From an uncultured Pseudoclavibacter sp. (GTDB lineage Bacteria > Actinomycetota > Actinomycetes > Actinomycetales > Microbacteriaceae), in assembly GCA_946221025.1 (NCBI GenBank), contig CAMIMS010000003.1:2512-66511 (forward strand): a stretch of 64,000 nt of DNA. Direction: 5' to 3'. This document shows positions 2,741 through 44,079 of the stretch, one piece after another (the first letter of the stretch is position 1; each line of letters begins with the position of its first letter). A program made the translations under genes and the position numbers. The notes below the pieces were generated by a model. The model was not told the DNA's origin, did no database searches, and saw nothing but the letters and a program-made list of their open reading frames with translations.

Positions 2741-3523
2741 ATGGTTGCCGTGCTGGATTTTCAGTCCGTGAGCGTCGTTCGATCCGGACAGCCCATCCTC
2801 AACAGAATTGACTGGCACGTCGAAGACGACGAGCGCTGGGTGATCCTCGGGCCGAACGGTGCGGGCAAGTCGACGCTGCTCGCGCTTGCCGCGGCACAGA
2901 TGCACCCGTCTTCGGGAAATGTCCAGATCCTCGAGGAAACGCTCGGGCGAACGGATGTGTTCGATCTGCGCCCGCGCATCGGACTCGCATCCTCCGCCGT
3001 CGCTCGACGCATTCCCGCAGGTGAGACGGTCAAGAACGTCGTGCTCACCGCGGCCTACGGGGTTACCGGGCGCTGGCGCGAACAGTATGACGACCTCGAT
3101 GAGGATCAGGCCGACTACGTGCTGCACCTTTGGCAGCTGACAGATCTCGCCGACCGCCGGTTCGGCACGCTCTCTGACGGTGAGCAAAAGCGCGTGCAGA
3201 TCGCACGGGCGGTAATGACCGACCCCGAGATCCTCCTCATGGATGAACCGAGCGCATCCCTCGACCTCGGTGCCCGCGAGCGGCTGCTCGCATCGCTCAC
3301 CAACTACCTGGCCTCCGAGGGGTCGCCGGCGATCATCATGGTCACCCACCACGTCGAAGAGATCCCGGTCGGCATCACGCACGCGCTTCTGCTTCGCGAT
3401 GGTGAGATCGTCGGCGCGGGCGCGATCGACGAGGTGGTCACGGGAGAGAAGCTCAGCGACACATTCGGGTTGCCGCTTCAGGTGACCCGCGAAGACGGGC
3501 GCTTCACGGCTCGCGCGAAATAG
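2741..3523 (+). CDS. ABC transporter ATP-binding protein (no adjacent permease)
   Basis: Walker A GPNGAGKST, signature LSDGEQKRVQIARA, Walker B LLMDEPSASLD; 260 aa. Confidence 0.85.
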   Translation: MVAVLDFQSVSVVRSGQPILNRIDWHVEDDERWVILGPNGAGKSTLLALAAAQMHPSSGNVQILEETLGRTDVFDLRPRIGLASSAVARRIPAGETVKNVVLTAAYGVTGRWREQYDDLDEDQADYVLHLWQLTDLADRRFGTLSDGEQKRVQIARAVMTDPEILLMDEPSASLDLGARERLLASLTNYLASEGSPAIIMVTHHVEEIPVGITHALLLRDGEIVGAGAIDEVVTGEKLSDTFGLPLQVTREDGRFTARAK

Positions 3524-3561
3524 CCGCACCACGACAACGCACGTCGCACGGCGAGAACAAC

Positions 3562-3598
3562 GAAGCGGGCGGAGGCACTGAGTGCTTCCGCCCGCTTC
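3562..3598. terminator. bidirectional intrinsic terminator hairpin between convergent genes
   Basis: gaagcgggcggaggcac-tga-gtgcttccgcccgcttc; 17-bp stem with one mismatch. Confidence 0.6.
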
Positions 3599-3613
3599 GT
3601 CGTCTGGCGCTCG

Positions 3614-4645
3614 TTATCGGTTCAGACCATCGAGGCGGTCGCGCACATTCGTCTCGAGCAACTCGTGCATGAGCGTTTCGAGCTTCTCGTGCACCCGCTT
3701 CATCGCGAGGTTGCTGCGCACCGCCTCCTGGTAGGCCTGTGTCTGGTCGACGGCAGAGAGGTCGGCCGGGTCTTCACCCGCGTGACGGGAGTTCCATTCG
3801 CGCAGCAGGCGAACCGCGGTGCCCGCAGCCCACTGATCGAACGTGGCTTCGCGAAGGTTCGTTTTCGCGGTGCGGATGAGCTCATCCCGAGCCTGCTGAG
3901 AGGCCTGCGCATCCGAACCGAACAGTCGCTCCTGCGCGTCTTGGCCGAGCTTCTCGATCGCGCCGGTCACGGCGGTATTCACGTCGTCAGCGACGCGATC
4001 CCATCCCCAGGCGCCCGGCATCATTGCGAAGGATGCGGGAAGGCGAACCGGCGCACGCAGCGCTTCGGCCACGCTCTTGACCGCGGGGAGCGACGACTCG
4101 CTGCCCTGGTCTGCAGCGGTCTGCGCCGGCTCACCCGCCGTTGCCGTGGTGTCGGGCGAGGCTTCCCCGCGTGCGATGGCCAGCTGCGCCTTCCACCATT
4201 CGGGGATGCGGTCCTCATCGCGCGGGTGCAGCTCAAGTTCGCGCGCCCACATCTCGGGCGTGGGGATCTGCCCGGCCTCGGGGTCTGTCGGGGGCTGGAG
4301 GGGCGCATCCGGGTGCATGCCGAACCAGACCTGGTCGTTCCAGATGACGTGCAGCTGCATCTCGCCCTCGCGAGAGAGCGTCATTTCAAGGGCCGTGAAC
4401 CAGCCACCCTTCGGGTCGCTCACCGCCTCCCGGTAGTCGTTCATAGCCGCCTGCAGCTCGGGGCTCACCTGACCGAGCATGGTTTGGCCATCCGCGGTGA
4501 CGAGGGTCAACTCCTGGAACTGCGCATTCACAACGCGCGACCAGATGACCCGGGAGCGCGTCCATTCAATGTTGGTTGGCATCAGTGCCCACCAGCTCTC
4601 GATCATGTTGTTCGAGGCTTCGGACATCCGCTGAAGATTGGGCAT
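3614..4645 (-). CDS. hypothetical two-domain protein (W-rich N-domain, P/E/A/T linker, helical C-domain)
   Basis: ORF with protein-like composition; start [11 protein letters not shown] chosen inside the longer 3614..4837 ORF; the antisense ORF 3665..4690 is R/G-rich and looks spurious. Confidence 0.55.
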
Positions 4646-4798
4646 GTCGCTCCTTGTTCCGGGGCCGGAAAGAATCGCTCGGCACGATAACAGCGCGGAT
4701 GAACGGCCAGCCGGAAACAAAGGCGAGAAACCGGGATGCGAGCCCGCGCACCCTCTCGCGCCTCGGCGAACGCAGTGGTATTGTTGCCGTTTGGCTCC

Positions 4799-4812
4799 CG
4801 CGCACGTGCGCG
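4799..4812. promoter_or_regulatory. perfect 14-bp palindrome CGCGCACGTGCGCG about 34 bp upstream of rpmE2
   Basis: seen directly; no canonical AT-rich Zur box found upstream of this L31 paralog. Confidence 0.25.
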
Positions 4813-4845
4813 ATGACGACATCAGAGTTTGACGCAAGGATTCGC

Positions 4846-5097
4846 ATGAAGAAGGACATTCACCCCGAGTACCGCCTCGTGGTCTTCAACGACCTCGCTT
4901 CGGGAGAGCGCTTCCTCACCCGTTCGACCGTCGCCACCGAGAAGACCACCGAGTGGGAAGACGGCAACACCTACCCGTCGGTCGACGTCGAGATCTCCAG
5001 CGCCTCGCACCCGTTCTACACGGGCAAGCAGCGCATCCTCGACTCGGCCGGTCGCGTCGAGAAGTTCAAGAACCGCTACGCGAAGTTCGGCAAGTAG
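4846..5097 (+). CDS. rpmE2: 50S ribosomal protein L31 type B (non-zinc-ribbon paralog)
   Basis: [23 protein letters not shown]...[24 protein letters not shown]; AAGGA RBS 6 nt upstream. Confidence 0.93.
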
Positions 5098-5114
5098 TTC
5101 GACCCGAAACGACG

Positions 5115-5152
5115 AGAGGGGCCCGCTGCCATCTGGCAGCGGGCCCCTCTCG
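5115..5152. terminator. strong bidirectional rho-independent terminator
   Basis: perfect 17-bp stem gagaggggcccgctgcc-atct-ggcagcgggcccctctc followed by gtttcg; lies between convergent rpmE2 and the exonuclease gene. Confidence 0.8.
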
Positions 5153-5176
5153 TTTCGCCCAGCACTCGTCAGGGGA

Positions 5177-5872
5177 TCAGCGACGACGGGTCGGCCAGCC
5201 GCGCGCCGCGGTGTAGGACGGGTCACGTTCGCGCCGCATGTACGACTCGAAGTCATCGGCCTGCGCATCCGCCCACTGCACTTGCATCCGGTGAATCTCA
5301 TCGAGTTCGCGGTCGAGCTCATCCGGGAACTTCACCGCGAGAGCCTGCGCGATGCGACCCGATGCGATCGCATCGTCTGATGCGGCATGCGCGTCCAGCA
5401 GCTCGACGCCGTAGGCGACCGCGGTATCGGTGAGGGTGCGCTTGCCCTTGCGGTAGCGGTCAACGGCGCGGTCAATCACGAGCGGATCGATGATTTGCTC
5501 GCCCAGCACGGGAATGATCGGCTCGAGCCCGTGGCGGTGGCATTCCGCATCAAGCAGTTCGAGGTCGTATGGCGCGTTGTAGATCACGAGCGGCACGCGG
5601 TTGCGCGCGATCCACTCGATGCCGGCGCGGATCGCGGCCACGACCTGCTCGGCCGGTTCGCCCTCTTCGCGCGCCATTTCGGTGGTGATCCCGTGCACGT
5701 TCGCGGCCTGTTCGGGAATCTCGACACCGGGGTCGGCAAGCCACTCGGTGCCGCGCATGATGTCGCCGTTCTCATCGAGCATGCCGATGAAGGCGGTCAC
5801 GATGCGCGCGTCGGCCGGGTTGATGCCGGTCGTTTCGGTGTCGAAGACGGCGATGCGCTCGTGCCAGCTCAT
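5177..5872 (-). CDS. DEDDh 3'-5' exonuclease (DNA polymerase III epsilon-like)
   Basis: VFDTETTGINPADARIV...NAPYDLELL...HAASDDA are Exo I/II/III motifs; start ATG overlaps the treS stop (ATGA). Confidence 0.85.
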   Translation of the reverse strand: MSWHERIAVFDTETTGINPADARIVTAFIGMLDENGDIMRGTEWLADPGVEIPEQAANVHGITTEMAREEGEPAEQVVAAIRAGIEWIARNRVPLVIYNAPYDLELLDAECHRHGLEPIIPVLGEQIIDPLVIDRAVDRYRKGKRTLTDTAVAYGVELLDAHAASDDAIASGRIAQALAVKFPDELDRELDEIHRMQVQWADAQADDFESYMRRERDPSYTAARGWPTRRR

Positions 5873-7662
5873 GCTTCGGCCCGACGCTCGGAGATCTCTG
5901 CTGCCGGGCGGATGATCGGGATGGCCGTGGTAGAGGTGGTCTGGTACTCCGCATCCGCCACGTAGAGCCAGTAGAAGGTCTGCGAACCGAAGGTCAGAGT
6001 CACCGTGCCGTCTTCGCAAACGCGCGGGAACTCCTGCCCACCGAAGAGGTCGAACAGGCGCGAGCCTTCGTAACCCGGCAGCTGGATCGTCGCGGTGGCG
6101 GGGTTGTGCGAGAACGAGAACACGCACAGCACCTGCTCGGGTCGGTCACCGGCGGTCGCGATGGGGGAGTCGGTGCCCCCGGCGTACGAACGGATGTAGG
6201 CGAGCACCGAGTCATGGCTGGTGGACATGACCGTGAGGTCGCCGAGCCCGAACACGGGGTGCTGACGACGCACCTGCAGCATTGATCGCAGCCACTGCAG
6301 GAATGAGCGCGACTGCCCGAGCTGCGCTTCGACGTTCACGGTGCGGAAGTTGTAGACGAGCGAATCCACGACCGGGAGGTAGAGCTTGCCGGGGTCTGCG
6401 GTTGAGAAGCCGGCGTTGCGGTCGGGCGTCCACTGCATCGGCGTGCGCGACGCGTCGCGGTCATCGAGCCAGATGTTGTCGCCCATGCCGATCTCATCGC
6501 CGTAGTAGAGGAAGGGTGAGCCCTTCAGCGAGAGCAGGATGGCGTGGGCGAGCTGGATCTCGTCGCGGGAGTTGTCGAGCAGTGGCGCGAGGCGGCGACG
6601 AATACCGATGTTGACGCGCATCCGCGGGTCGAAGGCGTACCAGCCGTACATTGCCTGGCGGTACTCCTCCGAGACCATCTCGAGGGTGAGCTCGTCGTGG
6701 TTGCGCAGGAACACGCCCCAGGCGGCCGCATCCGGAATCTCGAGCTGCTTCTCGAGAATGTTCTCGAGTTCGTGCTTCTCCTGCGAGCGAAGGGCGTAGA
6801 AAATGCGCGGCATCGTAGGAAAGTCGAATGCCATGTGGCACTCGGGGGCATCGTTGGTGCCGAGGAAGTCGACGACCTCTTCGGGCCACTGGTTGGCCTC
6901 GGCAAGCAGGATGCGGCCGGGGTATTCGCTGTCGACGAGGTCGCGAAGTTCGCGAATGTACTCGTGGGTCTCGGGCTCGCCCTCACCGTTGCCGTCTTCG
7001 GATTCGAACAGGTACGGGATGGCGTCGAGGCGCAGGCCGTCAACGCCGAGGTCGAGCCAGAACCGGATGATGTTCTTCATCTCTTCGCGCACGGCCGGGT
7101 TCTCGAAGTTGAGGTCGGGCTGATGCGAGAAGAAGCGGTGGAAGAAGAATTGGCGGCGAACCGGGTCGAAGGTCCAGTTCGACTCTTCGGTGTCGACGAA
7201 GATGATGCGGATGTCTTCGTACTTCTCGTCCGTGTCGCTCCACACGTAGTAGTCGCCGTACGGGCCCTCCGGGTCTTCGCGGGAGGCTTGGAACCACTCG
7301 TGCTGGTCGGAGGTGTGGTTGATGACCATGTCGATGATCACGCGCATCCCGCGCTCGTGCGCGCGGTGCACGAGTTCCTGGAACTCATCGATCGACCCGA
7401 ACTCGGGCAGCACCGCCCGATAGTCCTGCACGTCGTACCCACCGTCGCGAAGGGGCGAAAGGAAGAACGGCGGGATCCACAGCGCGTCAATGCCGAGCCA
7501 CTGCAGGTAGTCGAGCTTCGAGGTGAGCCCGGCGAAGTCGCCGACGCCGTCGCCGTTCGAGTCGGCGAACGAGCGCACCATCACCTCGTAGAACACCGCC
7601 CGCTTGTACCAGGATTCGTCCCGATCCAGTCCGGGCATGTGCAGTGGGGCGTTGAAGCTCAT
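5869..7662 (-). CDS. treS: trehalose synthase / maltose alpha-D-glucosyltransferase
   Basis: 597 aa GH13; WYKRAVFYEV, DGVGDFAGL and VINHTSDQHEWF are typical TreS motifs. Confidence 0.92.
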   Translation of the reverse strand: MSFNAPLHMPGLDRDESWYKRAVFYEVMVRSFADSNGDGVGDFAGLTSKLDYLQWLGIDALWIPPFFLSPLRDGGYDVQDYRAVLPEFGSIDEFQELVHRAHERGMRVIIDMVINHTSDQHEWFQASREDPEGPYGDYYVWSDTDEKYEDIRIIFVDTEESNWTFDPVRRQFFFHRFFSHQPDLNFENPAVREEMKNIIRFWLDLGVDGLRLDAIPYLFESEDGNGEGEPETHEYIRELRDLVDSEYPGRILLAEANQWPEEVVDFLGTNDAPECHMAFDFPTMPRIFYALRSQEKHELENILEKQLEIPDAAAWGVFLRNHDELTLEMVSEEYRQAMYGWYAFDPRMRVNIGIRRRLAPLLDNSRDEIQLAHAILLSLKGSPFLYYGDEIGMGDNIWLDDRDASRTPMQWTPDRNAGFSTADPGKLYLPVVDSLVYNFRTVNVEAQLGQSRSFLQWLRSMLQVRRQHPVFGLGDLTVMSTSHDSVLAYIRSYAGGTDSPIATAGDRPEQVLCVFSFSHNPATATIQLPGYEGSRLFDLFGGQEFPRVCEDGTVTLTFGSQTFYWLYVADAEYQTTSTTAIPIIRPAAEISERRAEA

Positions 7663-7722
7663 GGAGCGTCCTCTCGGGTGCGCGCGTGGTTGGCAAATAG
7701 CCGCGGCCTACACTTTCCCACG

Positions 7723-8643
7723 ATGGTGAACACTCACGCGCGCAGCGAGGCGCTTCTTGCCGGACGAACGGTGACCGAGCACCGCAACACGGTCGCGACA
7801 TCGGTCACCGGCTGGTGGGAATACGAGCCTGCCGAAGCAAGGGCTCGGGGCTTTGCTTCGGCGCCAACGCTCATCCTCGTGCACGGATTCCGTGGCACCC
7901 ACCACGGCCTCGAGGCGGTCGTCGCGCGGCTGCCGCAGTTTCGGGTGATTTCTCCCGACCTTCCCGGTTTCGGCGAGTCGACCCCGATGGCGGGGGAGCA
8001 GACCCTGGATGCGTACGCCGGGTGGCTGCGTCAATTCGTTGACCTCGTCGACCCCGCGGGCCGCGCGATCGTGCTCGGTCACTCCTTCGGATCGCTCATC
8101 GTCGCGCGCAACGTGCGAGCGCTCGGCGACCGGCGCATCGTGCTCGTGAACCCGATCTCGTCCCCGGCGCTCGAAGGCCCGGCAAAGATCGGCACGTTCC
8201 TTGCCATTGCCTACTACCGGATGGGGGAGATGCTCCCCGCGCCGCTCGGGCACACGCTGCTTGCGCATCCGGCGATGACGCGGGTAATGAGCGAGATCAT
8301 AGCGGTGACACGTGACCGGGCGCTGCGCCACTGGATTCACCGCCAGCACCTTGACCACTTCTCGTCGTTCTCTGACCGCTCGACGCTGCTGCAGGCGTTC
8401 AAGGCGTCCGTTTCTGACTCGGTCGCCGCGCACGCGGCTGAGTTCCCGCCGGGGACTGTGATGGTCGTGGGGGATCGTGACCAGATCGCACCGCTTGACG
8501 CGCAGCGCACGACGGCCGCCGCGATGCCAGGCGCCACCCTGCACATCCTTGAGGGGGTCGGGCACCTCATTCACTACGAGCGCCCGATCACGCTCGCCCG
8601 CATCCTCATCGATGAGTTCACAACCGGAACGGAAGTGATATGA
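7723..8643 (+). CDS. alpha/beta hydrolase fold protein
   Basis: LILVHGF...GHSFGS nucleophile elbow; start MVNTHAR chosen inside the longer ORF because upstream part is antisense to treS. Confidence 0.8.
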   Translation: MVNTHARSEALLAGRTVTEHRNTVATSVTGWWEYEPAEARARGFASAPTLILVHGFRGTHHGLEAVVARLPQFRVISPDLPGFGESTPMAGEQTLDAYAGWLRQFVDLVDPAGRAIVLGHSFGSLIVARNVRALGDRRIVLVNPISSPALEGPAKIGTFLAIAYYRMGEMLPAPLGHTLLAHPAMTRVMSEIIAVTRDRALRHWIHRQHLDHFSSFSDRSTLLQAFKASVSDSVAAHAAEFPPGTVMVVGDRDQIAPLDAQRTTAAAMPGATLHILEGVGHLIHYERPITLARILIDEFTTGTEVI

Positions 8644-15180: not shown

Positions 15181-15266
15181 TGCGCGAGGGGGGACTTGAA
15201 CCCCCACGCCCTAATACGGGCACTAGCACCTCAAGCTAGCGCGTCTGCCTATTCCGCCACCCGCGC
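15181..15266 (-). tRNA. tRNA-Leu (anticodon GAG), type II with long variable arm, CCA not encoded
   Basis: hand-folded cloverleaf: acceptor GCGCGGG/CTCGCGC, 3-bp D-stem, anticodon loop TTGAGGT, 17-nt variable arm, T-arm GGGGG-TTCAAGT-CCCCC. Confidence 0.85.
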
Positions 15267-36378: not shown

Positions 36379-36512
36379 CGAAATCACCCTTTCGCCGCAT
36401 TCACGAAGCCCAAAACAGGCTATCCGCCGGGGGTGCGAGCCCATGCCCCAATCATCCGGATGCGCCGAATCGCTCGATCGTGCGATTACGCTTACGCGCG
36501 CGCCACCGCCGG

Positions 36513-36541
36513 GCGAATGCACCATCGGTCGACGCATTCGC
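36513..36541. promoter_or_regulatory. inverted repeat GCGAATGC-N13-GCATTCGC, 22 bp upstream of the DUF808 gene
   Basis: perfect 8-bp arms seen directly in the selO/DUF808 divergent region. Confidence 0.3.
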
Positions 36542-36563
36542 ATCCCCTACCCCAAGGAGACCC

Positions 36564-37619
36564 ATGAGCGGTGGACTTGCTGCCCTCCTCGACGACATCG
36601 CCGCACTCGCGCGCGCGGCAGCGGCAAGCGTCGACGACGTTGCCGCCGCCGCAGGCAAAGCGAGCGTGAAAGCCACCGGCATCGTCGTCGACGACACCGC
36701 CGTTGTGCCTCAGTACATGCAGGGCATTCGACCCGAGCGCGAACTACCGATGATCTGGCGCATCGCGAAGGGATCGCTGTTCAACAAGCTCGTGATCATC
36801 CTCCCGGTGGCGATGCTGCTCAGTCAGTTCGCGCCGATTCTGCTGACACCGATACTCATGCTCGGCGGCACCTTCCTCGCATTCGAGGGCGCCGAGAAGG
36901 TGTGGGAGCTGATCACAGGCAAGGGCCATGACACCGAGGAGTCGAACCCCGATCGGCAGGTTGAGGGCCAGCAGGATGAAGACACGATCGTCAAGAACGC
37001 GATCCGCACCGACATCATCCTCTCGGCCGAGATCATGGTGCTCTCACTGAACGATGTCGCGGACCGCACATTCTGGATGCGCCTTGCGGTCATGATCGTC
37101 ATCGCCCTGTTCATGACGGTCATGGTGTACGGCGTTGTCGCGCTCATCGTGAAGCTCGACGATGTGGGCCTTCGCATGATGCGGCGCGAGGGCGGGTCGA
37201 AACTCGGTGAGCTGCTCGTGAAGGCAATGCCGATCGTGCTCGCGATCCTCCAGTACGTCGGCATGGTCGCGATGCTCTGGGTCGGTGGGCACATTCTGCT
37301 CCAGGGCACGCACGACCTCGGCTGGACGACCCCGTTCGACCTCGTTCACAGCGCCGAGCACTGGGTGTCAGGCCTCGTTCCGGCCGCCATCGCCCCGGTT
37401 GTCGGATGGATCACGGAGACGTTCATCTCGGCGATTGTCGGATTCGTCGTCGGCTCGATCGTTGCCGGCATCGTGTCGCTCTTCCACCGCGACCAGGGCG
37501 ATACGGATCGGGATGGGCAGCCTCGCGATGCGCAATCGTCTCGCGCGGCCGGTGCTCGCAAGACGACGCGCACCGACCAGCCGAATGCCAGCGGCTCGAC
37601 GGCAATCACCGCGCAATAG
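36564..37619 (+). CDS. DUF808 family inner-membrane protein (YedI-like)
   Basis: AKGSLFNKLVIILPVAMLL...AEIMVLSL typical DUF808; AAGGAG RBS. Confidence 0.8.
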   Translation: MSGGLAALLDDIAALARAAAASVDDVAAAAGKASVKATGIVVDDTAVVPQYMQGIRPERELPMIWRIAKGSLFNKLVIILPVAMLLSQFAPILLTPILMLGGTFLAFEGAEKVWELITGKGHDTEESNPDRQVEGQQDEDTIVKNAIRTDIILSAEIMVLSLNDVADRTFWMRLAVMIVIALFMTVMVYGVVALIVKLDDVGLRMMRREGGSKLGELLVKAMPIVLAILQYVGMVAMLWVGGHILLQGTHDLGWTTPFDLVHSAEHWVSGLVPAAIAPVVGWITETFISAIVGFVVGSIVAGIVSLFHRDQGDTDRDGQPRDAQSSRAAGARKTTRTDQPNASGSTAITAQ

Positions 37620-37635
37620 CGCTCCGTCAACGCGA

Positions 37636-39689: not shown

Positions 39690-40094
39690 TTACGAGTCGC
39701 TGATGTCGGGCTGACTATCCGGATCCCACATGAGCGTGTGCTGGTGGGTGATCAGACGCATACCCTCATCTGTCATTGCCCATGTGGATACGACGTCGGC
39801 AATGTATTCCACACCGTTTCTGGACGCGGTGAATCGGTACACGACCGCCCACGAGTCGCGCGAGAGCTCGACGACGAGCTCATTCGAGATCGTCGAACGC
39901 TCAAACGGACCGGCCGACTGGAGCGCGTCGAGCCACTGCCCACCAGTCATGACGAATCCCGGAAGCACGACGATTGTGCGTTCGGCAATGCAGGTGCGCA
40001 TACGAGCAACGTCACCCGAAGTCGCAATGATCGCTTCGCATCCGAGCACATCTTCTGCGTTCATGTGTTGCGCGTCGTGGGAAGCCGAGTTCAT
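39690..40094 (-). CDS. NTF2-like / SnoaL-like domain protein
   Basis: about 130 aa with NTF2-fold pattern; moderate confidence. Confidence 0.55.
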   Translation of the reverse strand: MNSASHDAQHMNAEDVLGCEAIIATSGDVARMRTCIAERTIVVLPGFVMTGGQWLDALQSAGPFERSTISNELVVELSRDSWAVVYRFTASRNGVEYIADVVSTWAMTDEGMRLITHQHTLMWDPDSQPDISDS

Positions 40095-40610
40095 CTATTC
40101 GTCCGCCTTCGGTTCTTCGATTTCGCCCTGGTCTGAATCGCCGGTCAGTTCAGTGAATCGAGTCGCATACTCGGGCATCACGGTCGCCCACGTGAACAGG
40201 GTGACCATGACGAGGGCAAAGGTCAGCAGTCGCATGATGTCTGTCGCGGCAATGGCGAGCAGTGCCGTCGCCGCCATTGCACCGAATCCAGCCGCGAGCG
40301 AATCGATCACTGCGAGTCGGAAGATTCCACGCTTCGTGACTGGTCGCAGGCCTGCGCTGAGCGCTCGCCGAACGCTCAGAAGGAGCCATGCTCCCCCGAG
40401 TGTGACAACGACATAGATGAGCCAACCCACGGCCGTGGCAACGATGCCGCGCGCGTCGATCGTGGCGCTCCCTTCGGGCGTGAAGCCAAAGTACGCGATG
40501 CCCGCCAGGATCCCGACGATGCTGAGGGTCGCCAGCATCCGCGGTGCGATCGCTTTAAGCGGAGGGCGAATATCCGCCTCGATCACCCGGGCCGGGGTGT
40601 CGTCTGTCAT
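40095..40610 (-). CDS. hypothetical membrane protein (4 TM)
   Basis: hydrophobic segments; contiguous with the upstream NTF2-like gene. Confidence 0.5.
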   Translation of the reverse strand: MTDDTPARVIEADIRPPLKAIAPRMLATLSIVGILAGIAYFGFTPEGSATIDARGIVATAVGWLIYVVVTLGGAWLLLSVRRALSAGLRPVTKRGIFRLAVIDSLAAGFGAMAATALLAIAATDIMRLLTFALVMVTLFTWATVMPEYATRFTELTGDSDQGEIEEPKADE

Positions 40611-40748: not shown

Positions 40749-41066
40749 CTAGTGGCGGTCAACCTGCTTGCCCGCACCGGTGTTCGAGCCGCTGTTGCGG
40801 CCCGCGAGCCACTGCCAAATAACGATCACGAGGATCGCGCCAATGGTCGAGAAGACCCAGGTCAGCGGGTTCCACAGGCCCCAGCTCTGCTCACCGGGGA
40901 GAAGACCGGCGATCAGACCACCGAGCGCGGCACCGAGCAGACCCGGGATCAGGGTGCCGAGGAAGCCACCACCCTGGCGTCCGGGAATGATGAACTTCGC
41001 GACGATGCCCGCGAGAAGTCCGACGATGATCCATGCGAGAAAACCAAGCGAAAATGCCGTGTTCAT
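40749..41066 (-). CDS. GlsB/YeaQ/YmgE-family stress membrane protein
   Basis: GFLAWIIVGLLAGIVAKFIIPG...G-rich TM pattern typical of the transglycosylase-associated family. Confidence 0.8.
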   Translation of the reverse strand: MNTAFSLGFLAWIIVGLLAGIVAKFIIPGRQGGGFLGTLIPGLLGAALGGLIAGLLPGEQSWGLWNPLTWVFSTIGAILVIVIWQWLAGRNSGSNTGAGKQVDRH

Positions 41067-41220
41067 AACAACCTCTAAATATTCGTTGGGAAGGAGCACG
41101 CGCGGAGCGTGCGCTCACGGGTGTGAACCCGTTTGCTCCTCGACGATAGTCAGCGACCCTGAGCAAGCCCGGGGTACTTCGACCCATCCGCTCCCCGTGC
41201 CGGTTGCGACCTCATCTCGA

Positions 41221-41532
41221 TCAGAGCTGAGAGGGGCCCGAATCATCCCCGGACTCGACCTCATCCGGTTCCGACAGAATCGCGCAAATCCGATCGAGAA
41301 TCTCGTCTGCATCCATGCCCGAAACGGTGATTTCCACGCTGTCCCCCGGATGCAGTTCTAACGCGACAATGCCGAGGACGCTTCGCGCGTCACGGTTCCC
41401 GATCCGCACGCTCGCAGAGACCTGTCGGGCGATCTCGGCAATCTCCGTGGCAGGCCGGAGGTGCAGGCCATCGGCACGAGTCACCCGGACCCGTTGAGTC
41501 AACAGTCCGTCACGCTCTACCCGTGCGTGCAT
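41221..41532 (-). CDS. HPr-family phosphocarrier protein (orphan)
   Basis: ADGLHLRPATEIAEIA contains the His15-equivalent; about 100 aa with acidic tail. Confidence 0.75.
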   Translation of the reverse strand: MHARVERDGLLTQRVRVTRADGLHLRPATEIAEIARQVSASVRIGNRDARSVLGIVALELHPGDSVEITVSGMDADEILDRICAILSEPDEVESGDDSGPSQL

Positions 41533-41625
41533 CGCGTGGCCCCGTTCCTCGTCGTCCAACGGTGCGACCGTCCTTGCTACTCCATCGGCGTTTCGGCCCT
41601 GTTCACCGCCATCTAGCTGGTCTTG

Positions 41626-41647
41626 ACGCGGATCGTCCCTACCACGC
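41626..41647. promoter_or_regulatory. perfect inverted repeat TCCCTACC-acgctc-GGTAGGGA in the HPr/glpF divergent region
   Basis: seen directly; about 80 bp upstream of glpF. Confidence 0.35.
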
Positions 41648-41724
41648 TCGGTAGGGAGCTACAGTTATGCGGATCGCGCGTCGCAGAGTGGTGGCGCGCA
41701 CACGATTGAGAAGGGCTATTTCTC

Positions 41725-42498
41725 GTGGGAACGATTTTTCTTTCCGAGATGGTAGGCATGACCCTGCTGATTCTCCTCGGATGCGGTGTGGTCGCGAACG
41801 TCGCGCTTGCCGGCACGAAGGGCAACGGTGCCGGATTCCTCACCGTCAACATCGGATGGGGCCTCGCGGTGTTCGTGGGTGTCCTCGCTTCGGCGGCCTC
41901 TGGCGGACACATCAACCCGGCAGTGACGCTGGGGCTTGCCGCAAACGACCTCGTCAACGGTGCTGCCGTTGACTGGGCCGATGTCGCCATCCGCATTGCC
42001 GCCCAGATGGTCGGCGCCATCCTCGGTGCGATCCTGTGCTGGCTGTCGTACAAGACGCACTTCGACGACGAGCCGGACCCGGCCAACAAGCTCGGCGTGT
42101 TCGCTACCGGCCCGGCTACGCGTTCGTACGGCTGGAACTTCGTGACCGAGGTCATCGCGACCTTCGTGCTCGTGCTCGCCGTCATCTCGTTCGCGAACTT
42201 CAACGCACCGGCTGAGCCCGCGCAGGGCGGCCAGGTCTTCTCTGAGCTCGGCAACCTCGCCCCGCTTGCGGTCGCGCTCGTCGTGATCGCGATCGGCGCC
42301 TGCCTCGGTGGTCCCACCGGTTACGCCATCAACCCTGCCCGTGACCTCGGCCCGCGCATCGCGCACGCGATTCTTCCGATCCGCGGCAAGGGCGGCAGCG
42401 ACTGGGCCTACTCGTGGGTCCCGGTTGCCGGTCCGATCGTCGGTGGTGTGCTCGCGGGCCTGATCGGCACCGCGATCCTGCCGCCGGCAATGGGCTAA
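41725..42498 (+). CDS. glpF: glycerol uptake facilitator (MIP/aquaglyceroporin)
   Basis: two NPA boxes (HINPAVT, AINPARD); GTG start. Confidence 0.9.
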   Translation: MGTIFLSEMVGMTLLILLGCGVVANVALAGTKGNGAGFLTVNIGWGLAVFVGVLASAASGGHINPAVTLGLAANDLVNGAAVDWADVAIRIAAQMVGAILGAILCWLSYKTHFDDEPDPANKLGVFATGPATRSYGWNFVTEVIATFVLVLAVISFANFNAPAEPAQGGQVFSELGNLAPLAVALVVIAIGACLGGPTGYAINPARDLGPRIAHAILPIRGKGGSDWAYSWVPVAGPIVGGVLAGLIGTAILPPAMG

Positions 42499-42549
42499 CC
42501 CGAAGCTTCACCTCCAAGTCAACGACGACAAGAGAAAGAGAGCGCCCTC

Positions 42550-44079
42550 GTGGCAGAAAACAAGTACGTGATCGCACTCGACCAGGGCACGACCTCGAGC
42601 CGTGCCATCGTGTTCGATCACTCCGGTTCGATCATCTCGACCGGTCAGCTCGAGCACGAGCAGATCTTCCCCAAGGCCGGATGGGTCGAGCACGACCCGA
42701 CGGAGATCATTCGCAACGTGCGCGAGGCGATCGGTCAGGCACTTTCGCGTGCAAACCTGACCCGTCACGACATCGAAGCGGTCGGTATCACCAACCAGCG
42801 TGAAACCACGGTGGTCTGGGACAAGAACACCGGTGAGCCGATCTACAACGCGATCGTGTGGCAGGACACCCGCACGCAGGCGATTGTCGACCGTCTCGCA
42901 CAGGATGGCGGCGAAGACCGCTTCCGCGAGACGGTGGGTCTTCCCCTCAGCACCTACTTCTCGGGAACGAAGATCCTCTGGATCCTCGAGAACGTGGAGG
43001 GTGCGCGCGAGAAGGCCGAGGCCGGCGATCTGCTGTTCGGTACGACCGACACCTGGGTGCTTTGGAACCTCACCGGCGGCGTGAACGGTGGCGTGCACGC
43101 CACCGACGTCACGAACGCGTCGCGCACGCTCCTCATGGACCTGCGCACGCTCGACTGGGATGAGGACATTCTCGAGGTCTTCGGCATTCCCCGGTCGATG
43201 CTCCCGGAGATCAAGTCGTCGTCCGAGGTCTACGGCAACATCGAGTCGAGCTCGCTGCTTCGCGAAGTTCCGGTCGCCGGAATCCTCGGTGACCAGCAGG
43301 CCGCCACGTTCGGCCAGACCGCCTTCGAAAGCGGTTCGGCGAAGAACACCTACGGCACCGGCTCGTTCCTCATTTACAACACCGGTGAGGAAATCGTTCA
43401 GTCGGACAACGGCCTGCTGACCACCGTTTGCTACAAGCTCGGTGACAACAAGCCGGTGTACGCTCTCGAGGGTTCGATCGCGGTCACGGGTTCGCTCGTG
43501 CAGTGGCTGCGCGACAACCTGCGCATGTTCGACCAGGCCCCCGAGGTTGAGAAGCTCGCCCTCGAGGTCGAGGACAACGGTGGCTGCTACGTCGTGCCGG
43601 CCTTCTCGGGTCTGTACGCGCCGTACTGGCGCTCGGACGCGCGTGGAGCGATCGTGGGCCTGACCCGCTACGTGAACCGTCACCACATCGCGCGTGCCGT
43701 TCTCGAGTCGACCGCCTTCCAGACGCGTGACGTGCTTGAGGCGAGCAATGCCGACTCCGGTGTGCCGCTCGAGGAGCTGCGCGTGGACGGCGGCATGGTC
43801 GAGAACGACACCCTCATGCAGTTCCAGGCCGACATCCTCGGCACCGAGGTCGTTCGCCCGAAGGTCGCGGAGACGACCGCACTCGGCGCGGCGTACGCGG
43901 CCGGTCTTGCCGTCGGGTTCTGGAAGGACCTCGACGAGGTTCGCCAGAACTGGCAGGAGGACAAGCGCTGGACCCCGCAGATGTCGGAGGACGAGCGTGA
44001 GCGTCGCTACCGCATCTGGAAGAAGGCTGTCGAGCGCACCTTCGACTGGGTCGACGAAGACACGACCGAACTGGCCTAG
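42550..44079 (+). CDS. glpK: glycerol kinase
   Basis: [23 protein letters not shown]...[17 protein letters not shown] kinase motifs. Confidence 0.95.

Follow-up and report, generated by a model that had tools for sequence, protein, structure and literature searches.

The window analysed here, a stretch of 64,000 nucleotides from a contig of an uncultured Pseudoclavibacter sp. (CAMIMS010000003.1; G+C content 64.5%), carries a gene for a protein of the HPr phosphocarrier family that stands alone and diverges from glpF and glpK, the genes of the glycerol facilitator and glycerol kinase. Very probably, this HPr gene is what remains, at the 3' end, of an ancestral dhaM whose EIIA-Man part was lost by deletion together with dhaK and dhaL. 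The locus as a whole is most likely a decayed dhaKLM-glpFK cluster and thus a case of ordinary gene-cluster decay, and its HPr, although it has an unusual history, adds to a known family and does not make a new system. An earlier reading made from the letters alone (the sequence-only reading) had recognized the divergent arrangement, on which the open reading frames (ORFs) and the Pfam matches agree, and had considered a regulatory link between HPr and glycerol metabolism.

The ORF encodes an HPr with an intact active-site context. It matches the Pfam model PTS-HPr (PF00381) with 68.1 bits at a cut-off of 23 and passes the NCBIfam model TIGR01003 'HPr family' with 50.2 bits at a cut-off of 47.9. 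In alignments with the solved HPr chains 3ihs, 1kkl and 1jem, the His of GLHLRPA, which had been proposed as the His15 equivalent, indeed coincides with His15, and Ser46 is matched by the Ser of DARSVLGI; the equivalent of Arg17 is also present. The loop directly before the Ser46 equivalent carries a deletion of four residues relative to the solved structures. An AlphaFold2 model predicts the beta-alpha-beta-beta-alpha-beta-alpha core of HPr with pLDDT (predicted local distance difference test) values of 83-92 and disordered tails. In a Foldseek search of the PDB with this model, all significant matches (E <= 0.001) were HPr or Crh, followed by NPr at E = 0.024, and the best match was 3ihs (TM-score 0.84, root-mean-square deviation 1.6 A). 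With the general HPr (PtsH) the protein shares the fold, the active-site motif His-x-Arg-Pro, the Ser46 context, a length of about 100 amino acids and a gene of its own. It differs from PtsH in the shorter loop before Ser46, in having neither ptsI nor an EII gene beside it, in best relatives that reach only E ~1e-9 and in its presumed origin by truncation of a fusion gene.

Among 1.84 billion cluster representatives searched, only the protein's own cluster matched below E = 1e-10, and the next-best relatives (E ~1e-9) were 33-46% identical. Many of these relatives are 225-270 amino acids long and carry the HPr domain C-terminally, and most of those tested by Pfam are DhaM-type fusions of EIIA-Man and HPr, to the HPr domains of which the window protein can be aligned gaplessly. 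In the window protein PTS-HPr is the sole domain detected, and an EIIA-Man domain (PF03610 or TIGR02364) was not found. The active-site His and the regulatory Ser are 27 residues apart. Among the 150 best relatives this spacing is confined to EIIA-Man + HPr fusions and to shorter products, whereas the stand-alone HPr proteins have a spacing of 31 or more (31 in 40 of them). Of two short products that were looked up on their contigs, P0006 was seen to overlap with an EIIA-man ORF, the picture expected of a split or frameshifted DhaM, and P0008 lies on a contig of 793 bp that gives no context. With the HPr domains of Microbacteriaceae DhaM proteins, the window HPr aligns without gaps in 14 of 15 cases.

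The gene order in related genomes places this protein in a specific ancestral setting. A genome scan with GlpF as query yielded 80 related glpFK loci, referred to below by L numbers. The closest genome is that of Pseudoclavibacter sp. 125703-2019 (L002; OU365335.1), with 80% identity in GlpF, the start context of which is also kept, and 87% in GlpK; all other loci, mostly from Microbacteriaceae and other Micrococcales, have GlpF identities of at most 66% and GlpK identities of 63-81%. According to Pfam, glpF of L002 diverges from a dhaK-dhaL-dhaM operon (Table 1), and Cryobacterium tagatosivorans (L048) shows the same layout. In 19 of the 80 loci, tblastn locates dhaK-dhaL-dhaM 5' of glpF and on the strand opposite to it; these loci come from Pseudoclavibacter, Agromyces, Cryobacterium, Marisediminicola and Frigoribacterium as well as from metagenome-assembled genomes (MAGs). 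The operon directly adjoins glpF in all of them except Frigoribacterium (L052), where it is found ~1.5 kb further upstream, leaving 18 directly adjoining cases. A hidden Markov model (HMM) of the HPr domain located ORFs with this domain in 17 of the loci, again 5' of glpF and on the other strand.

Comparison of the window with L002 shows that the two loci are collinear on either side of a single gap. The same genes flank both, and the window HPr aligns by tblastx inside the HPr domain of DhaM, so that it matches this domain in position and orientation (positional orthology). Between the HPr domain and glpF, the offset between the two sequences jumps by 2182 bp. What L002 encodes in the stretch that is absent from the window is exactly dhaK and dhaL plus the EIIA-Man half of dhaM. 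The argument that the HPr gene is a remnant of dhaM is carried by its position and orientation and by the four-residue deletion that the two share. Compared with actinobacterial DhaM proteins, which consist of EIIA-Man and HPr, the window HPr has in common the loop shortened by four residues with its spacing of 27, the genomic position and orientation of dhaM in L002, and the divergent adjacency to glpFK seen in the 18 loci. It differs from them in the missing EIIA-Man domain, in the absence of dhaK and dhaL from the 64 kb, in an identity of only 29-36%, and in new N- and C-terminal tails.

Table 1. Position of the features discussed in the window and of their counterparts in the locus of Pseudoclavibacter sp. 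125703-2019 (L002).
Feature	Position in window	Strand	Position in L002	Basis and remarks
134-amino-acid ORF	39726-40085		1604-1963	tblastx
202-amino-acid membrane ORF	40296-40586		2173-2463	tblastx
Small membrane protein gene, directly 3' of the HPr ORF; left synteny anchor	40749-41099	minus		Weak Transgly_assoc match
Small membrane protein, aligned part	40815-41039		2798-3022	tblastx; blastn 71%; just 3' of L002 dhaM
HPr-domain ORF	41221-41532 (103 amino acids, ATG 41532); alternative TTG 41559 (112 amino acids)	minus		Pfam PTS-HPr E=6.9e-19
HPr, aligned part	41275-41475		3369-3569	Inside the DhaM HPr domain, residues 170-242
Hypervariable leader 5' of the HPr ATG, in frame with the ORF	41533-41596	minus		Strain comparison; behaves as non-coding
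Inverted repeat TCCCTACC-N6-GGTAGGGA	41636-41657	no strand		Sole match in window
glpF, glycerol facilitator (MIP family), GTG start	41725-42498	plus	begins at 6001	Pfam MIP E=2.5e-36; glpK and trpD then follow
glpK, glycerol kinase	42550-44079	plus		Pfam FGGY_N E=7.4e-82, FGGY_C E=7.2e-49
GlpK loop N230-E239, matching the Firmicute activation loop, without His	43237-43266	plus		HMMER alignment with 3d7e and other GlpK structures
L002 dhaM		opposite to glpF	3348-4085	EIIA-man + PTS-HPr
L002 dhaL		opposite to glpF	4082-4726	Dak2 E=1.2e-55
L002 dhaK		opposite to glpF	4729-5736	Dak1 E=4.5e-136

The history that we propose would start from an ancestor that carried dhaK-dhaL-dhaM divergent from glpF-glpK, as related Microbacteriaceae still do, with a DhaM that served as the EIIA-Man + HPr phosphotransfer subunit of a dihydroxyacetone kinase dependent on the phosphotransferase system (PTS). 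A deletion of ~2.2 kb would then have taken the genes dhaK and dhaL as well as the part of dhaM that codes for EIIA-Man, and left the coding sequence of the HPr domain beside the upstream region of glpF, to be read from a new start, probably ATG 41532. We place this event as a deletion in the lineage of the window and not as an insertion elsewhere. For Actinobacteria, fusions of IIA-Man and HPr encoded in operons of dha kinases have been documented; Leifsonia xyli, which belongs to the Microbacteriaceae, is one of the cases (PMC2405797). Since the dhaKLM-glpFK arrangement occurs in several genera and such fusions are on record, deletion in the window lineage is the most parsimonious direction. 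The sequence-only reading had suggested that the HPr might serve a DhaM-type system encoded elsewhere; the connection to DhaM stands, but the synteny with L002 makes it an ancestral and local one rather than a link to a distant partner. The remnant, which continues to resemble a functional HPr domain, is probably still expressed and may still take phosphate from Enzyme I (EI), and it could act as a spare or general phosphocarrier or serve an EIIA-Man/DhaKL set encoded elsewhere.

As had been claimed before, genes of the PTS and of dihydroxyacetone kinases are missing from the neighbourhood: Pfam scans of the window ORFs detected no gene for EI, EIIA, Dak1 or Dak2 in the 64 kb, and DhaK and DhaL of L002 gave no match in the window as tblastn queries. 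Relics of dhaK, dhaL or EIIA in 41000-41800 were not found by relaxed tblastn either. A search of the literature on the PTS of Pseudoclavibacter yielded nothing useful.

Several observations weigh against descent from dhaM. The 77-residue core of the window HPr is only 29-36% identical to the HPr domains of 15 Microbacteriaceae DhaM proteins, whereas these are 47-60% identical to the L002 domain (21% for a divergent copy in L052). The window protein reads GLHLRPA where the DhaM domains have GLHARPA, and the C-terminal SGFGE is absent. Local alignment of the DNA of 41476-41724 with positions 3500-6000 of L002 gave no better similarity than shuffled controls. Because no nucleotide similarity beyond shuffles is left, the deletion junction is not mappable, although it must fall between about 41485 and 41724. 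A genome of intermediate divergence was not found, with no relative at identities from 46% to 95%. Given the low identity of the HPr, while the GlpK of the window is closest to that of L002 (87% compared with 63-81%), the remnant must sit on a long branch.

A rival view is that the gene is an ordinary stand-alone ptsH, the general HPr of a sugar PTS, which reached this place by chance, for instance by replacing the dha operon, and does not derive from dhaM. The main evidence for it is that an HMM built from stand-alone HPr proteins gives the window HPr 90 bits, compared with 78 bits from one of DhaM-type domains; both sets were, however, picked for their similarity to the query, so that the comparison is biased by their choice. 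Passing the generic TIGR01003 model, the low identity to the DhaM domains and the occurrence of GLHLRPA in several stand-alone relatives but in none of the DhaM-type ones point in the same direction. On the other hand, the gene has the two flanking genes in common with the dhaM HPr domain and agrees with it in position and orientation, and the spacing of 27 is found only in the short-loop group of the 150 best relatives and not in the 40 stand-alone proteins with 31. Replacement would also demand two events, a loss and an insertion at one spot, where a deletion needs one. We therefore consider a replacing ptsH improbable.

Whether the remnant is still of use to the cell can be approached through close strains. 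The cluster of the window HPr at 90% identity contains six variants from several metagenomes, on contigs with the same gene arrangement that are ~97.7% identical to the window (~2.2% diverged). The contexts of His15 and Ser46 are invariant in all six. Relative to L082, the HPr core (41278-41508) has 6 synonymous and 1 non-synonymous changes (omega, the ratio of non-synonymous to synonymous rates, 0.06). With 27% of sites being synonymous, 6 synonymous among 7 changes correspond to p ~0.002 against neutrality in binomial arithmetic. Over the whole ORF from ATG 41532, the comparison with L082 gives 8 synonymous and 8 non-synonymous changes (omega 0.35), the excess of the latter falling in the N- and C-terminal tails, and that with L001 gives 5 and 3 (pN/pS 0.22). 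The substitution pattern among the three close strains compared indicates that the HPr core is now under purifying selection, and the gene is therefore probably expressed.

The same comparison bears on the start codon. The in-frame extension upstream of ATG 41532 (41533-41658) is 7-8% diverged among close strains, compared with an average of 2.2% elsewhere, and shows 2 synonymous and 7 non-synonymous changes relative to L001 (pN/pS 1.1) and 3 and 7 relative to L082 (pN/pS 0.8). All but one of these differences lie within 41533-41596, with 8-9 differences in 64 bp, so that a substitution hot spot just 5' of the HPr ATG borders on nearly invariant 128 bp adjoining glpF. Because the extension evolves neutrally, we take ATG 41532 as the start; the resulting form of 103 amino acids is also the one in public collections including NCBI. 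The spacer between HPr and glpF then measures 192 bp instead of the 165 bp given before. A separate cluster of substitutions is found at 37535-37623, at the 3' end of a DUF808 gene (36480-37619), where 16 substitutions relative to L001 fall in ~90 bp, far denser than in the rest of the 4.7 kb alignment with this strain.

If the ORF were a dead relic, that is, an untranslated or functionless pseudogene fragment not yet decayed, the loss of its partners (dhaK, dhaL and the EIIA domain), the very long branch that separates it from the orthologous DhaM domains and its freely varying tails would be easily understood. Moreover, scans for promoters and terminators in 41000-42000 were negative, also with respect to a sigma-70-like promoter. 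A relic should nevertheless not keep an intact ORF with the equivalents of His15, Arg17 and Ser46 in all six variants, nor does a core with the above departure from neutrality relative to L082, a whole ORF with mostly synonymous changes relative to L001 or a confidently predicted fold fit such a fate. A dead fragment is thus unlikely. At the other extreme, purifying selection could have kept the HPr, once freed from DhaM by the deletion, as a protein of its own with a new function; it might, for instance, carry phosphate or regulate in connection with glycerol catabolism and be expressed from the old divergent control region of dha and glp. We consider such a new function improbable. If it were true, the dhaM without dhaKL in a Lacisediminihabitans sp. 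MAG (L034) would hint at a recurrent functional link between DhaM/HPr and glpFK.

The L034 locus has a two-domain dhaM (EIIA-man + HPr; 5032-5730, minus strand) ~270 bp 5' of a divergent glpF (6001, plus strand), with an amidase gene following, and its product is 56% identical to DhaM of L002. Neither dhaK nor dhaL is present within +/-6 kb, which makes it a second, independent dhaM beside glpFK without kinase subunits.

The proximity of an HPr gene to glpK recalls the activation of glycerol kinase by HPr in Firmicutes, with which the window shares an HPr-family gene and glpK in one locus. GlpK of the window meets the equivalog model TIGR01311 (763 bits, cut-off 590.35; NCBIfam), and its closest solved relative is chain 2d4w (E=1.8e-251), which we take to be the glycerol kinase of a Cellulomonas sp. 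In Bacillus subtilis GlpK, the residue phosphorylated by HPr is His230. In the HMMER alignment, the Enterococcus casseliflavus chain 3d7e reads htrsyAfygsevp at the activation loop, and Ser235 of the window protein (43252-43254) stands at the position of His232 (index 231 of this chain is residue 232). We take 3d7e to be the His232Ala mutant, in keeping with the Ala that it shows there. In E. casseliflavus GlpK, His232 is the target of HPr (PMC2680290). The loop N230-E239 of the window GlpK has Ser at the aligned position, is one residue shorter and contains no His, in agreement with what had been read from the sequence before, and the nearest relatives L002-L004 likewise lack a loop His. Because of the missing His, the window GlpK cannot be activated in the Firmicute way. 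Furthermore, HPr kinase has been reported to be absent from Actinobacteria (PMC2405797).

In many related Micrococcales GlpKs the loop does contain a His, which occupies either of two positions (e.g. TVHTSQLL, VNEHSLL); these GlpKs include those of L011, L013, L015, L021, L024, L046, L066 and L068. The second of these positions could align with Firmicute His232 under another gap placement. The presence of a loop His in Micrococcales GlpKs does not track that of dhaKLM. In the two Cryobacterium loci L048 and L080, tblastn matched glpK only in parts, ~6835-7635 (residues 6-272) and 7577-8329 (residues 258-508), and the loop region of L080 GlpK reads frameshifted (GHCRPSTKVRRR), so that glpK may be disrupted in both.

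The other feature that had suggested regulation is the perfect palindrome TCCCTACC-acgctc-GGTAGGGA in the spacer. It exists, but lies at 41636-41657, 10 bp from the position first given (41626-41647). Its right arm reads GGCAGGGA in all six related sequences, which leaves a version with 7 of 8 matching positions; as position 41652 is T here and C in the six relatives, the perfect symmetry hangs on one strain-specific base. Even when 3 mismatches were allowed, no second copy was found in the window, nor does the half-site recur in it. None of 81 related loci has a match to the palindrome, and it is absent from the dhaK-glpF spacer of L002. Repeats of this kind are common: the window contains 58 perfect 8-bp inverted repeats with loops of 0-12 nt, or 0.15 per 165 bp, and 795 with at most one mismatch, or ~2 per 165 bp, and a perfect repeat arose in 2.7% of shuffled spacers. 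Folded as RNA, the window version reaches -14.3 kcal/mol (z -2.6) and that of the relatives -9.6 kcal/mol (z -0.7). The glycerol regulators are GylR of the IclR family in Streptomyces and Mycobacterium and GlpR of the DeoR family in Proteobacteria. The palindrome shares with their operators that it is a short inverted repeat 5' of glpF, but it differs in that no regulator gene is adjacent and that it occurs as a single copy, is not conserved and is imperfect in sister strains. The comparison of sequences makes it most likely a chance feature and provides no grounds for calling it an operator or a structured element, so that the earlier proposal of an operator is not upheld.

A functional coupling of HPr to glpFK, in which HPr would regulate GlpK or the uptake of glycerol by a mechanism other than phosphorylation of a His and the palindrome would be the operator of a glycerol regulator, would draw on the divergent layout present in all strains of the clade, on the selection acting on the HPr core, on the near invariance among strains of those 128 bp of the spacer that lie next to glpF (41597-41724) and on the dhaM beside glpF without dhaKL in L034. 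Yet the strains have diverged by only ~2%, and therefore their conserved arrangement weighs little. The target loop of GlpK lacks the His, and the palindrome, which is imperfect in 6 of 7 sequences, has no second copy in the window, is missing from relatives and occurs about as often as chance allows. Ancestry accounts for the adjacency: with a head-to-head layout inherited from a glycerol/dihydroxyacetone cluster, the neighbourhood of the two genes is no evidence that HPr controls GlpK. Such a coupling is consequently very unlikely.

Some further sequence elements were noticed around the palindrome. A partial third half-site, TGGTAGGCATGACCC, falls at 41750-41764 within the opening codons of glpF and shows 80% complementarity to 41630-41644, and an 8-nt direct repeat, GCGGATCG at 41628-41635 and 41669-41676, flanks the palindrome with a spacing of 41 nt. 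Both are fully conserved in the close strains, as is all of 41597-41780 except for 41652 and 41736. A resemblance of the palindrome arms to the conserved blocks ACCTACGCG and GGTAAGGGG in the dhaK-glpF spacers of Cryobacterium and Agromyces was dropped, as the spacing is 7 nt compared with 17 nt and homology is unsupported; the likeness had been drawn by eye only, and the blocks may be the -10 and -35 elements of dhaK. At ~5667-5780, in the dhaK-glpF spacer of L048, the 16-nt unit CTGTGGGGGTACTGAC is repeated in tandem about six times, and this array extends the spacer to 334 bp compared with 204-264 bp in the other loci.

The remaining gene content of the window was established from Pfam scans of its ORFs and from the gene table of a near-identical contig that covers 31.2-51.6 kb. 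The neighbourhood is of housekeeping type, with glgC/glgA-like genes, pafB/pafC, tatC, lnt, rbpA and selO, and further with qcrCAB, ctaE/ctaD/ctaC, trpD, hisD and dnaE. The Transgly_assoc match of the small membrane protein next to HPr (E=0.0013) is below the Pfam cut-off. The only Rfam match in the window is a tRNA-Leu at 15181-15266.

Taken together, the suggestive neighbourhood of an HPr gene beside glpFK, a GlpK without the activating His and a neat palindrome is most likely explained as a deletion scar combined with a chance repeat, and the locus gives no grounds to propose a new regulatory mechanism between HPr and GlpK. If the HPr gene is, as we think very probable, what is left of dhaM, one domain of a fusion protein has outlived its partner domain and both kinase subunits, and although strongly diverged it would still have a core under purifying selection. 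It would then be a small natural example of a freed domain and a candidate for asking what HPr does without its cognate pathway.

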